13,605 nt of DNA from a virus (lineage: Duplodnaviria; Heunggongvirae; Uroviricota; Caudoviricetes). The notes under the pieces were generated by a model, which did not search any database, was not told the DNA's origin, and saw only the letters and a program-made list of their open reading frames with translations. This document shows, in pieces, positions 1 to 3,984 of the stretch; within the stretch, counting starts at the first letter, position 1; the number at the start of each line of letters is the position of its first letter. A program made the position numbers and the translations under genes. The stretch is from positions 1 to 13,605 of the IMG/VR virus record IMGVR_UViG_2695420596_000001; one strand, given 5' to 3'.

Positions 1-221
1 ATTACGGTAACGACTGGCAGACGCTGGAGCTGGTGTTCACCGCCGGCAGTGCCACGGTTACTCCGAAACTGAATGGAGTGGCTGGCCCGGCATTCCAGGT
101 TATAAAAGACAGTCTGACACTGGGACTGAATGCGCTGACGCTGACGGATGTTACAAAAAATGCAGCGTATGGCGTTGAGATAGAAAGTCTGGTGCTGGAG
201 ATAAATGCACCGGCAGCATAA
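1..221 (+). CDS. 3' end of an upstream gene, 5'-truncated by the window edge; product unknown
   Basis: Frame 3 is open from the window edge to TAA at 219-221 (tail ...YGNDWQTLELVFTAGSATVTPKLNGVAGPAFQVIKDSLTLGLNALTLTDVTKNAAYGVEIESLVLEINAPAA). It is Cys-free and beta-strand-like. No family recognised; it does not resemble the C-terminus of lambda Q as I recall it. Confidence 0.4.
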   Translation, partial: YGNDWQTLELVFTAGSATVTPKLNGVAGPAFQVIKDSLTLGLNALTLTDVTKNAAYGVEIESLVLEINAPAA

Positions 222-222
222 T

Positions 223-263
223 AAAAAAAGAGCCAGCGACTGACCTGAAAGAAGACGCTGGCT
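223..263 (-). terminator. Hairpin with adjacent A7 tract (U7 on the minus strand): candidate minus-strand intrinsic terminator, copy 1
   Basis: Perfect 8 bp inverted repeat AGCCAGCG (231-238) / CGCTGGCT (256-263) with a 17 nt loop, preceded on + by AAAAAAA (223-229). It has terminator geometry only when read on the minus strand. Confidence 0.3.
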
Positions 264-370
264 AAAAGGCCTTATATGTTTGTAGAGACTTATTTTTCAC
301 AGACAGCAATGATGCCTGTCAATATATTATCAATATGCGGATTGTTTCAGTTACAGATGCTTTATTAAGG

Positions 371-413
371 AAAAAAACAGCCAGCACTGACTTTCGGTGG
401 AGAGGTGCTGGCT
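371..413 (-). terminator. Hairpin with adjacent A7 tract: candidate minus-strand intrinsic terminator, copy 2 (paralogous to 223-263)
   Basis: Inverted repeat CAGCCAGCAC (378-387) / GTGCTGGCT (405-413) with a 17 nt loop, preceded by AAAAAAA (371-377). Shares the GCCAGC(G)ACTGAC core with copy 1. Confidence 0.3.
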
Positions 414-483
414 CAGAAGGATAGTTGGATTTCACATGATACTTATGCCTGGCGGTATATTTTCTGACAGACAGTGACGGGTG

Positions 484-511
484 TTGTCAAGATATTGTGT
501 CATTTATAACC
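484..511 (+). promoter_or_regulatory. Candidate late promoter (pR'-like)
   Basis: TTGTCA (484-489) and TATAAC (505-510) with a 15 bp spacer, about 80 bp upstream of a strong terminator and about 160 bp upstream of the holin start. This is the position of pR'/qut in lambdoid late regions. Hexamers were picked by eye and the spacer is short. Confidence 0.25.
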
Positions 512-588
512 TGAATCAGGGGAGGCCGGAATGTTATCTGGCATTTTTAGCAGAGCCTGAATGCCATAATCACGGCTCCCGGAGTTGG

Positions 589-628
589 CCGTCAGTGGGT
601 GACACTGGCGGCTTTTTTGTTTTTCTTT
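589..628 (+). terminator. Rho-independent terminator (tR'-like) upstream of the holin
   Basis: 10 bp stem GCCGTCAGTG / CACTGGCGGC (one G-U pair), 5 nt loop GGTGA, followed by TTTTTTGTTTTTC. Confidence 0.55.
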
Positions 629-668
629 ACTTTCATTTTCTGTCGGCGGTGACGGAGACATACATCAG

Positions 669-875
669 ATGGAAAAAATCACAACAGGTGTGTCATACAC
701 CACGTCAGCGGTGGGGACGGGATACTGGTTACTGCAGCTGCTGGACAAAGTCTCTCCGTCCCAGTGGGTGGCAATAGGTGTGCTGGGAAGTCTGCTGTTT
801 GGCCTGCTGACGTATCTGACTAACCTGTATTTCAAAATCAGAGAGGACCGTCGTAAGGTGGCGCGGGGAGAGTAG
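669..875 (+). CDS. S: Class II holin (pinholin), phage 21 S-like, 68 aa
   Basis: Translation [68 protein letters not shown] closely parallels the S21 pinholin as I recall it (two TM helices, C-terminal ...[17 protein letters not shown]). SD-like GGAGAC lies 9 nt upstream of the ATG. Confidence 0.85.
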
Positions 876-1130
876 TCGATGAATAAACAATACGAACTGG
901 TTGTAAAATGAATATTTCTAACTGAAAAAACGTTCCATGAGGTAAGAAAAGGTCACAGGCAATCAATAACAGGACGTGATGAAAGACCCTTGCATTTGTG
1001 CGCTTTCTCTTTAGATAGCAGCAGATACTGAAAATCTGAGTTGTCGGGGAGTCAGGGATACAGCTGTGCAAGAGTTGGTCATTGTGATTCCATTGAAATC
1101 CTGTATGCCATGAAGGGCAGGATTTTATGG

Positions 1131-1445
1131 CTACCTGAGCTTTGGTGATAGTAAGTTGAAAATTCGCATTTTTTGCTGACATGCGTAACGAGAATCCCAT
1201 AAGCAGGGAGGACTTAATTCTTCATTAACCCATGCGTTGATATTATGTTTCAGCCGTTGAAGCATCAGCGGTGTTAATGTTGTGGTAATAATATCCAGCG
1301 TTTTATGTGAGATCTTACCGTAAGGGTCTGCAAGAATGCTGCTTGTTGCTTCGTTATTATCTGCCATCAGAAGAAGTAACTCTGATTTAACGTTTTCTGT
1401 CATTAGTTGTAAAAATCTTCTGCGCAAACTTTCTTTACTGTTCAT
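1131..1445 (-). CDS. Hypothetical protein (104 aa), opposite-strand cargo ORF inserted between holin and endolysin
   Basis: Intact minus-strand ORF (MNSKESLRRRFLQLMTENVKSELLLLMADNNEATSS...) in a visibly AT-rich ~690 bp segment that interrupts the otherwise contiguous S-R arrangement. A TATAAT-like hexamer sits upstream on the minus strand (around 1511-1518). The composition is helix-rich and protein-like; no family recognised. Confidence 0.4.
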   Translation of the reverse strand: MNSKESLRRRFLQLMTENVKSELLLLMADNNEATSSILADPYGKISHKTLDIITTTLTPLMLQRLKHNINAWVNEELSPPCLWDSRYACQQKMRIFNLLSPKLR

Positions 1446-1562
1446 TTATATGGCTTCATTTGTTGTAATCTGCTGCGTCTCAAGGGATATGTTTATGAGA
1501 GCGACCATGAGTGTTGGATTATATACCTAACATATCAAGGGATTAGAAATCGATAAATCCCC

Positions 1563-2096
1563 ATGCACGAAAAAATAAAATACGGCCTGTCGGCTGCCGT
1601 TCTGGCGCTGATTGGTGCAGGTGCTTCTGCGCCTGAAATCCTCGACCAGTTTCTGGATGAAAAGGAAGGTAACCACACCACGGCATACCGTGATGGTGCG
1701 GGGATCTGGACCATCTGCCGTGGTGCCATTCTGGTGGATGGTAAGCCTGTTATTCCTGGCATGAAGCTGTCAAAGGAAAAATGCGACCGGGTTAATGCCA
1801 TCGAACGTGACAAGGCGCTGGCATGGGTGGAGAAAAACATCCGGGTGCCGCTGACCGAACCCCAGAAAGCGGGGATCGCGTCATTCTGTCCGTACAACAT
1901 TGGCCCCGGTAAGTGCTTCCCGTCGACGTTTTATAAACGAATTAATGCAGGCGATCGAAAAGGTGCCTGTGAGGCGATTCGCTGGTGGATTAAGGACGGT
2001 GGCAGAGACTGCCGTATCCGTTCAAATAATTGCTACGGTCAGGTCTCACGGCGTGACCAGGAGAGCGCGCTGGCGTGCTGGGACATCGACAGATAG
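1563..2096 (+). CDS. R: Phage endolysin (lysozyme family, SAR-type N-terminus), 177 aa
   Basis: N-terminal weakly hydrophobic Gly/Ala-rich segment (KYGLSAAVLALIGAGASAP) followed by a lysozyme-like domain. It resembles the R21/RrrQ-type prophage endolysins of E. coli as recalled. A SAR endolysin is the expected partner of a pinholin. Confidence 0.88.
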   Translation: MHEKIKYGLSAAVLALIGAGASAPEILDQFLDEKEGNHTTAYRDGAGIWTICRGAILVDGKPVIPGMKLSKEKCDRVNAIERDKALAWVEKNIRVPLTEPQKAGIASFCPYNIGPGKCFPSTFYKRINAGDRKGACEAIRWWIKDGGRDCRIRSNNCYGQVSRRDQESALACWDIDR

Positions 2097-2316: not shown

Positions 2317-2430
2317 ATGAAAGGCATTGAAGTGGAGACGCCAGCCAGTCTGGATTTAACAAGAGCGGCAGCTTTTGCCATTCGTATTGTGGCCATTGCT
2401 GTTCTGGTCTGGGCAATCCGTTGGTGGTGA
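2317..2430 (+). CDS. Small ORF (37 aa) with a C-terminal hydrophobic helix, stop codon abutting the Rz start
   Basis: ATG at 2317 with GAGG 9 nt upstream; translation MKGIEVETPASLDLTRAAAFAIRIVAIAVLVWAIRWW; its TGA (2428-2430) is followed one base later by the Rz ATG (2432). Not in the ORF track because it is under 60 aa. Confidence 0.3.
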   Translation: MKGIEVETPASLDLTRAAAFAIRIVAIAVLVWAIRWW

Positions 2431-2431
2431 T

Positions 2432-2899
2432 ATGAACCGTGTTCTGTGCGTGGTTATCATTGTCCTGCTGGTGGCCTGTGGTGCGCTTAGTCTGGGGCTG
2501 AATCATTACCGTGATCACGCCATCATCTACAAAGAGCAGCGCGATAAAAAAGCCAGTGAGCTGGAGCTGGCGAACGCGACAATTACTGATATGCAGATAC
2601 GCCAGCGTGATGTCGCTGCACTTGATGCCAGATACTCGAGGGAATTAGCCGATGCGAGAGCTGAAAATGAAACTCTGCGTGCTGATGTTGCCGCTGGTCG
2701 TAAGCGCCTGCGGATCAACGCCACCTGCTCCGGTACCGTGCGTGAAGCCACCGGCACCTCCGGCGTGGATAATGCAACCGGCCCCCGACTGGCAGACACC
2801 GCTGAACGGGATTATTTCATCCTCAGAGAACGGCTGATGGCAATGCAGAAGCAACTGGAAGGAGCACAGGAATATATCCGTACCCAGTGTATACCGTGA
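2432..2899 (+). CDS. Rz: Rz inner-membrane spanin (i-spanin), 155 aa
   Basis: Translation from ATG 2432 (MNRVLCVVIIVLLVACGALSLGLNHYRDHAIIYKEQRDK...RDVAALDARY...TAERDYFILRERL...) is collinear with lambda Rz as recalled: N-terminal TM helix then coiled-coil periplasmic domain. Confidence 0.85.
   Translation: MNRVLCVVIIVLLVACGALSLGLNHYRDHAIIYKEQRDKKASELELANATITDMQIRQRDVAALDARYSRELADARAENETLRADVAAGRKRLRINATCSGTVREATGTSGVDNATGPRLADTAERDYFILRERLMAMQKQLEGAQEYIRTQCIP
2652..2837 (+). CDS. Rz1: Rz1 outer-membrane lipoprotein spanin (o-spanin), embedded in the +1 frame of Rz
   Basis: MRELKMKLCVLMLPLVVSACGSTPPAPVPCVKPPAPPAWIMQPAPDWQTPLNGII... has a lipobox (VSAC) and a proline-rich mature region nearly collinear with lambda Rz1; it lies wholly inside Rz in another frame. 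Confidence 0.8.
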   Translation: MRELKMKLCVLMLPLVVSACGSTPPAPVPCVKPPAPPAWIMQPAPDWQTPLNGIISSSENG

Positions 2900-3759: not shown

Positions 3760-3984
3760 TTAAGTAAACCTGTCTGAACAGGTGCTCTGGTCGTGTTTGT
3801 CTTTGTTGGGTACAAATTGAGCATGTTTTTCATTAATTAATCTTCTTCTGCAGGCTTCAATAACCCACGCTGAAAAATTACCTGAACCTTTCTGATCAAG
3901 AGCGATGTTAATTTGTTCAATCATTTGGTTAGGAAAGCGGATGTTGCGGGTTGTTTTTCTGCGGGTTCTGTTCTTCGTTGACAT
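3760..3984 (-). CDS. Ribbon-helix-helix (Arc/Mnt/CopG-type) DNA-binding protein, 74 aa
   Basis: MSTKNRTRRKTTRNIRFPNQMIEQINIALDQKGSGNFSAWVIEACRRRL...: an Arg-rich N-terminal arm, then a beta-strand/helix/helix pattern (IRFP..E.I..A...G.S.NFS..V.EA) typical of Arc/Mnt-like repressors. Confidence 0.6.
   Translation of the reverse strand: MSTKNRTRRKTTRNIRFPNQMIEQINIALDQKGSGNFSAWVIEACRRRLINEKHAQFVPNKDKHDQSTCSDRFT

Follow-up and report, generated by a model that had tools for sequence, protein, structure and literature searches.

The closest described relatives of the locus reported here are the Pas small RNAs (sRNAs) of E. coli prophages. The pasA and pasC genes lie between the sialic-acid esterase and the holin/lysozyme genes, and phage NC_011356 is named as a PasA carrier (Zhu, Shabalina and Storz, 2026 preprint, doi 10.64898/2026.05.13.724894). 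In EPEC E2348/69 (NC_011601), PasA is listed on the minus strand with a single start at 743499 and two ends, a major one at 743415 (85 nt) and a minor one at 743264 (236 nt); these ends were taken from RNA-seq coverage and northern sizes and hence are accurate to a few nucleotides only (Table S6 of Pearl Mizrahi et al., 2021, PMC8550237). The northern probe was GCCAGCACTGACTTTCGGTGGAGAG (PMC8550237), and the pasA RNA was found to be 2.8 log2 units lower in an hfq mutant (Table S2, PMC8550237). The region between pasA and the esterase gene is RNA2 in 100% of its RIL-seq chimeras (PMC8550237), a behavior characteristic of the 3′ end of an sRNA bound by Hfq. The PasA seed is given in the Fig. S5 text of PMC8550237 and is also discussed in the preprint (doi 10.64898/2026.05.13.724894).

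Table S6 notes in addition 'homologues identified in EHEC (EcOnc51/EcOnc52)' (Pearl Mizrahi et al., 2021, PMC8550237). EcOnc51, in prophage Sp12 of EHEC Sakai, and EcOnc52, in prophage Sp4, are Hfq-CRAC sRNA candidates (Tree et al., 2014, PMC4104026, Table S2). They represent crosslink clusters, not mapped transcripts, and are listed as two separate candidates.

AgvB and AsxR (Rfam RF02702, RF02703), the convergent anti-sRNAs of the PR′ moron region, are also short prophage Hfq sRNAs that are antisense to the late transcript, lie downstream of PR′ and end in an intrinsic terminator. However, they are 51–60 nt long and precede the esterase gene, in the interval that separates it from stx.

The esterase–holin spacer in a Stx-type prophage

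The window analyzed here, the whole stretch of 13,605 nt of the IMG/VR record IMGVR_UViG_2695420596_000001, is the late region of a lambdoid, Stx-type prophage. The gene order is sialate-esterase, intergenic region, holin S, lysozyme R, Rz and terminase (Table 1), and positions 1–908 show 95–98% identity to H-19B and many Stx1a phages. In homologous records the esterase is labelled either a yjhS 9-O-acetyl-N-acetylneuraminic acid deacetylase or a SASA family carbohydrate esterase, and the order there is antiterminator-side gene, tRNAs or stx, esterase, spacer and holin. E. coli chromosomes also show tRNAs or stx, followed by the esterase, upstream of the spacer, as in the phage records.

Passages in PMC7547250 and PMC4104026 locate PR′ upstream of stx. 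With tRNAs or stx and then the esterase found upstream of the spacer, PR′ is therefore placed well to the left of the window and not in 414–668. A reading made from the sequence alone had taken the stretch downstream of the two hairpins described below to be the late promoter region. This finds no support, as PR′ lies upstream of stx and positions 587–613 hold a plus-strand terminator and no promoter. The terminator consists of an 11-bp stem followed by the T-run TTTTTTGTTTTT (−22.3 kcal/mol, z = −3.7); it is kept in homologues and lies approximately 45 nt 5′ of the holin S start. In a lysogen, esterase/moron transcripts would stop at this site, and transcription toward it is convergent with PasA.

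Two other segments of the window were noted. The 687 bp between holin S and lysozyme R (876–1562) are present at ≥99% identity in 631 of 5,426 complete E. coli genomes, and gave no megablast match among 50,697 phage records. The segment has a minus-strand hypothetical open reading frame at about 1131–1403 (WP_000138558.1 in RefSeq) with no Pfam domain, and it looks like an uncharacterised antisense moron within the lysis cassette. Further downstream, a DUF3950 open reading frame at 3760–3984 on the minus strand is homologous to Sakai ECs_2255. The 3′ end of ECs_2255 in Sakai overlaps HnrS (EcOnc10), a 66-nt anti-silencing sRNA, and the window diverges from Sakai exactly at that point.

Table 1. 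Features of the esterase–holin spacer and its surroundings. Positions are those of the window; genome positions are those of NC_011601.
Feature	Position	Strand	Detail and basis
SASA-family sialate O-acetylesterase gene, 3′ end (nanS-p/yjhS type)	33–221	+	ORF list; stop TAA 219–221
CTGGTGCTGGA in esterase mRNA	189–199	+	GGTGCTGG within it complementary to PasA seed CCAGCACC; window sequence
hp1, distal Rho-independent terminator	223–263	−	stem AGCCAGCG 231–238 / CGCTGGCT 256–263 (263–256/238–231 in the RNA); 17-nt loop; A7 223–229, templating U7 (229–223); sequence, fold
Spacer, diverged body plus upstream part of unit 1	264–370	−	TTGACA 322–317, CTGTCTGT and ATAAGT paralogous to PasA upstream
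hp2, proximal Rho-independent terminator and Hfq-binding 3′ module	371–413	−	stem AGCCAGCAC 379–387 / GTGCTGGCT 405–413 (413–405/387–379 in the RNA); 17-nt loop; A7 371–377, templating U7 (377–371); sequence, fold
PasA seed GCCAGCACCU	404–413	−	PMC8550237; same letters in window
PasA-family sRNA, major 85-nt form	371–455	−	coordinates transferred by alignment; identical to Sakai Sp12
PasA read-through form, minor, ~236 nt	220–455	−	one start, two ends (Table S6, PMC8550237)
PasA 5′ end	455	−	743499; alignment
PasA major 3′ end	371	−	743415; last U of hp2 U7; alignment
RIL-seq RNA2 chimera end	223	−	743267 (743267–743294); last U of hp1 tail; alignment
PasA minor 3′ end	~220	−	743264; three bases past hp1 U7; alignment
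Candidate PasA promoter	461–490	−	−35 TTGACA 490–485, TG 469–468, weak −10 CAGAAA 466–461
Plus-strand intrinsic terminator upstream of holin S	587–623	+	terminator scan; fold
Holin S (phage 21 type)	669–875	+	Pfam PF04971, E = 1.3e-32
Lysozyme R	1563–2096		Pfam PF00959
Rz	2375–2899		
Terminase	from 4379 onward		

The two hairpins and the mapped ends of PasA

The sequence-only reading had also described two paralogous hairpin-plus-A7 elements at 223–413, and both are present there with a loop of 17 nt each. The start-to-start spacing of the two, hp1 and hp2, is 148 bp, and a shared A7-N2/3-GCCAGC motif is repeated at that spacing. The stems are 8 bp (hp1) and 9 bp (hp2) in length with 5–6 G-C pairs, and on the minus strand a U7 follows after one or two bases. 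When folded as minus-strand RNA, the stem-loop plus U7 of hp1 gives −16.0 kcal/mol (z = −6.1) with none of 200 shuffles as good, and that of hp2 gives −16.3 kcal/mol (z = −3.2) with 1 of 200 as good. Both hairpins display on the minus strand the G+C-rich stem followed by at least six U that marks a terminator, and both have loops that exceed the typical terminator loop length. A generic terminator scan of window positions 1–1600 found five terminator-like sites where 1.2 were expected; with its loop limit of 8 nt, the scan detected no more than an inner version of hp1 and overlooked hp2. A bidirectional function finds no support, as the plus-strand stems are followed by AAAAGG and CAGAAGG, with no U-tract.

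The earlier observation that no minus-strand open reading frame ends at the hairpins also stands. The nearest one, at 500–661 (53 aa), stops 87 nt before the hp2 stem. This open reading frame was considered as a gene ended by hp2 and was rejected. It shows no Pfam match, and the G-run at 521–527 (CAGGGGAGGCC) varies among homologous loci, where it reads GGGGTTGG, GGGGGGGGGAG, GGGGGGG or GGGGGG. These length changes break the frame, and thus 500–661 is not considered a gene.

The PasA locus of E2348/69 prophage PP2 was fetched and aligned base for base with the window, and the published coordinates were carried over (Table 1). The PP2 locus occupies the same position, from the esterase stop to the holin, is antisense, and has both hairpins with the 148-bp spacing. 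With respect to the window, its hp1 differs by a 2-nt shorter loop and by two extra bases (GA) between the A7 and the stem. The 236-nt PasA span shows 94% identity between window and E2348/69. Over the 85 nt of the major form the identity is 87%, but it is unevenly distributed: the 3′ 45 nt, which include the seed and the terminator, are identical, whereas the 5′ 40 nt share 72.5%. The 5′ part of PasA in the window resembles PasC more closely than it resembles the PasA of E2348/69, and the window sRNA appears to match the description of the common variant PasA-2 of Zhu et al. The phage NC_011356 is among the phage matches to the window region, with 95.5% identity.

The northern probe is found letter for letter at window positions 380–404, inside hp2. 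The PasA seed is likewise identical and overlaps the 5′ arm of the hp2 stem, read as 413–404 on the minus strand. The locus lies antisense between the esterase 3′ end and the holin/lysozyme genes of a lambdoid prophage, as do the members of the PasA family, and the folds, the U7 after both stems and the covariation described below all agree with the PasA terminators. The suggestion that the hairpins are minus-strand terminators of a small RNA is borne out by the published RNA-seq, northern and RIL-seq ends at the 94%-identical locus, which fit the two U-tracts.

The EHEC candidates lead to the same RNA. Positions 180–470 of the window are identical to Sakai Sp12 and positions 180–344 to Sakai Sp4, and the identity of the intergenic region to the two mapped loci is 94–100%. 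EcOnc51 falls on hp2 and EcOnc52 on hp1 (approximately window 211–288), both on the strand antisense to the late genes, although the identity of the Sakai copies prevents hp1 reads from being traced to a particular prophage.

Thus hp2 and hp1 are the main and back-up terminators of PasA, a published Hfq-binding prophage sRNA antisense to the late genes. The feature is genuine and already known from the literature, both 3′ ends included, as PasA in EPEC and EcOnc51/52 in EHEC. Strand, both 3′ ends, Hfq dependence and Hfq-bound chimeras at both hairpins have been published for near-identical loci, and by this likeness PasA would be expressed in the source organism of the window as well. To this known sRNA the present analysis adds an exact transfer of coordinates, a survey of architectures, compensatory changes and the duplication of the unit. 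With a probability of about 0.9, hp1 and hp2 act as tandem Rho-independent terminators of one minus-strand PasA-family sRNA gene that points against the late operon.

Identity of the locus with AsxR or AgvB was considered, as their class of position is similar, and rejected on the basis of their position between stx and the esterase and of the model searches. The AgvB/AsxR covariance models gave no match at gathering score in the whole window and none in 1–1000 at E-values up to 5.

In the proposed mechanism, transcription would start at about window position 455, or the RNA would be processed to that point. Most polymerases would stop at hp2 and its U7 to give the 85-nt sRNA. The 3′ stem-loop of hp2 with its U-tail would then form the Hfq-binding module, with the seed in the 5′ arm of the stem. 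Some polymerases would read through hp2, which would be a leaky primary terminator because its 9-bp stem carries a 17-nt loop. Read-through would be halted 148 nt later at hp1 and its U7, resulting in the minor form of about 236 nt. The hp1 U7 template ends one base from the esterase stop codon, and hp1 would keep antisense transcription out of the esterase gene; such insulation is a plausible consequence of the arrangement. Fail-safe tandem terminators such as rrnB T1-T2 consist of a leaky first terminator and a second one that serves as a backup a short distance downstream, and they give rise to short and long RNAs. The arrangement in the window differs in that the terminators are paralogous copies from the duplication of an sRNA unit and that each is also an Hfq-binding 3′ module.

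The longer northern band has been read as a 5′-extended precursor (Zhu et al., doi 10.64898/2026.05.13.724894). As the probe lies within hp2, the long RNA must contain hp2, and this fits a 3′ extension. In Table S6 of PMC8550237 the two forms share their 5′ end and differ at the 3′ end, which disagrees with the 5′-precursor interpretation, and the primary table is followed here.

The origin of the 5′ end is suggested in two ways. A candidate promoter upstream of the 5′ end (Table 1) is conserved in the PasA and PasC loci and, from its sequence, would put +1 at 454/455. However, it failed a consensus scan, which found no promoter above chance (two matches versus 2.8 expected). The other suggestion is that the 5′ end of PasA arises by processing (Zhu et al., doi 10.64898/2026.05.13.724894).

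Apart from the terminator, the 85-nt RNA shows no unusual structure (z = −0.5). The minimum-energy fold of the 236-nt RNA (window 221–455, minus strand) displays a long-range nested helix in which the arms of hp2 pair with the arms of hp1, because the two stems are paralogous. This pairing is probably an equilibrium artefact of the fold, but it could affect exposure of the seed in the long form.

A possible target is found in the neighboring gene. The GGTGCTGG segment, complementary to the PasA seed, lies within the last 30 nt of the esterase open reading frame and differs little from the 3′ arm of hp2. The PasA RIL-seq target motif in E2348/69 has sites in E2348C_0688 (CUGAUGCUGGA) and E2348C_1246 (CUGGUGCUGGA) (PMC8550237). 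These sites are homologous to window positions 189–199. PasA may therefore pair with the mRNA of its convergent esterase neighbor in this genome as well.

Conservation and duplication of the sRNA unit

Covariation was assessed with 11 distinct hairpin variants from homologous loci. Across these variants 94.5% of cells pair, and no shuffle or slid register reaches the observed pairing. Two stem positions are changed on both sides (C-G to U-A and G-C to A-U). The T-run is 6–8 long in every one of the approximately 180 hairpin units collected.

A search for other copies of the hairpin core had been proposed. The GCCAGCGACTGAC core occurs once only in the window, but the locus as a whole is multicopy in genomes: of 5,426 complete E. 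coli genomes, 679 carry it, and the number of places per genome has a median of four and a maximum of eight. The RefSeq annotation of the 679 carrier genomes shows no ncRNA at the spacer. In Rfam, no family was found at gathering threshold in the whole window, and none that is real in positions 1–1000 at E-values up to 5, where there was a chance snoRNA match only.

An exact-match scan of IMG/VR for the esterase 3′ end gave 119 loci, and 113 of these were long enough to classify. The architecture of hp1 plus hp2 is the most frequent (68 of the 113 loci). A single PasC-type hairpin is present in 23 loci, and ten have a lone hairpin of the hp2 type (stem GCCAGTAC/GTACTGGC) that follows the stop codon directly. 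In seven loci hp1 is the sole hairpin, and an IS element usually occupies the spacer. Two have hp1 plus the GCCAGTAC variant of hp2, two have hp2 only, and in one no hairpin was found. The 148 bp that are present or absent among loci are bounded by the two A7 runs.

The similarity between the two elements extends beyond the hairpins. When the units are aligned on the minus strand, TTGACA, CTGTCTGT and ATAAGT are in register, with a 15-nt gap in unit 1 around the position of the PasA 5′ end. Thus hp1 and hp2 represent a diverged tandem duplication of the whole sRNA unit, which supports the earlier idea of a duplicated element.

PasC of E2348/69 prophage PP5 is of the same locus type and on the same strand, and its 5′ end is homologous. 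Its stem, GCCAGCG/CGCTGGC, is of the hp1 type and is found directly after the esterase stop. PasC differs from the window in having a single hairpin with a shorter, different loop and a longer stem of 11 bp; a second terminator and the 105-nt spacer are both absent. Judged by this comparison, PasC looks like a one-unit form with an hp1-type stem.

Positions 264–350 form a recurrent IS insertion site. IS629 is found at 344/345 in Sakai Sp4 (L123) and in a second locus (L040), and other IS insertions are at approximately 283, 341 and 343 (IMG/VR loci among L014, L033 and L044). Each of them parts hp1 from hp2 and PasA.

The distal unit and other readings

The duplication raises the possibility, held here tentatively, that hp1 also terminates a second, independent sRNA of about 65–90 nt, encoded by unit 1 as a tandem paralogue of PasA related to PasC. 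Such an RNA would have its own promoter in the 264–350 spacer and a seed GCCAGCGUC instead of GCCAGCACC, the seed being altered by the G-C/A-U swap that distinguishes the two stems. It would be compatible with the role of hp1 in read-through. The motifs in register with the PasA upstream region agree with it, as does a promoter-like match on the minus strand at 350–321, but the −10 candidates are weak and the number of matches in the scan is at the chance level given above. PasC provides a precedent, being a validated 79-nt sRNA with the hp1-type stem in the same place; however, unit 1 is without the 15 nt around the PasA 5′ end. In Sakai Sp4 the two hairpins are parted by IS629; there EcOnc52 was assigned to hp1, with an upper edge (~288) near the position homologous to the PasA 5′ end, but the Sp4 reads may be multi-mapped from identical copies that keep hp2, or may come from read-out of IS629. 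In RIL-seq, the hp1 region takes the RNA2 position and has a set of partners of its own. The published probe is unable to detect an RNA of this kind. That the hp1 unit is a separate, undescribed sRNA gene, a PasA paralogue with its own promoter in 264–350, is from these sequence features somewhat more doubtful still.

HnrS (EcOnc10-12, 66 nt, PMC13502914), which is similar in size to the predicted unit-1 RNA, was considered as a candidate and rejected. It is situated approximately 3 kb away in Sakai Sp12, and the HnrS region of Sakai Sp12 has no match in the window.

It is unlikely that the hairpins act mainly on the plus strand, as 3′-UTR stem-loops that protect or process the esterase/late mRNA. 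As plus-strand RNA they do fold (−15.6 and −20.8 kcal/mol; z = −5.1 and −4.0), but any hairpin folds on both strands. The hp1 stem starts 10 nt after the stop codon, and plus-strand RNA across the spacer is seen in RIL-seq (pasA.E2348C_0689.IGR); against this, it is the minus strand to which the mapped ends and the Hfq binding belong, the T-run of 6–8 is conserved on the minus-strand side only, the plus-strand stems run into AAAAGG and CAGAAGG, and the plus strand has its own canonical terminator at 587–623. Stabilization of the plus-strand mRNA may at most be a side effect. A last reading denies the hairpins any RNA function and takes them for inert leftovers of a duplication, or for a target of recombination or IS insertion at the DNA level. 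The varying architectures (both hairpins, an hp1-type alone or an hp2-type alone), the A7 runs that bound the 148-bp indel and the repeated IS insertion between hairpins might suggest it, but it is hardly credible in view of the compensatory stem changes, the conserved U-tract, the experimentally mapped 3′ ends of an Hfq-dependent RNA and the retention of the locus in many genomes at a median of four copies.

The interpretation of hp2 and hp1 as tandem terminators of PasA places the window within a family that has been validated since 2014/2021 yet is absent from Rfam 15 and from RefSeq annotation. Because of this absence, readers of raw sequence keep rediscovering PasA and its two terminators. 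The biology itself is not new, and whether the distal unit is a gene of its own is a modest question. Of the accessory-genome sRNAs in EPEC, PasA is one of those with the most interactions, and its partners include type III secretion and bfp mRNAs; Shiga-toxin-producing and attaching-effacing E. coli carry the locus in several copies. If the distal unit does produce its own RNA, a single 240-bp spacer in two-hairpin prophages would give rise to two Hfq sRNAs, each with a different set of targets.
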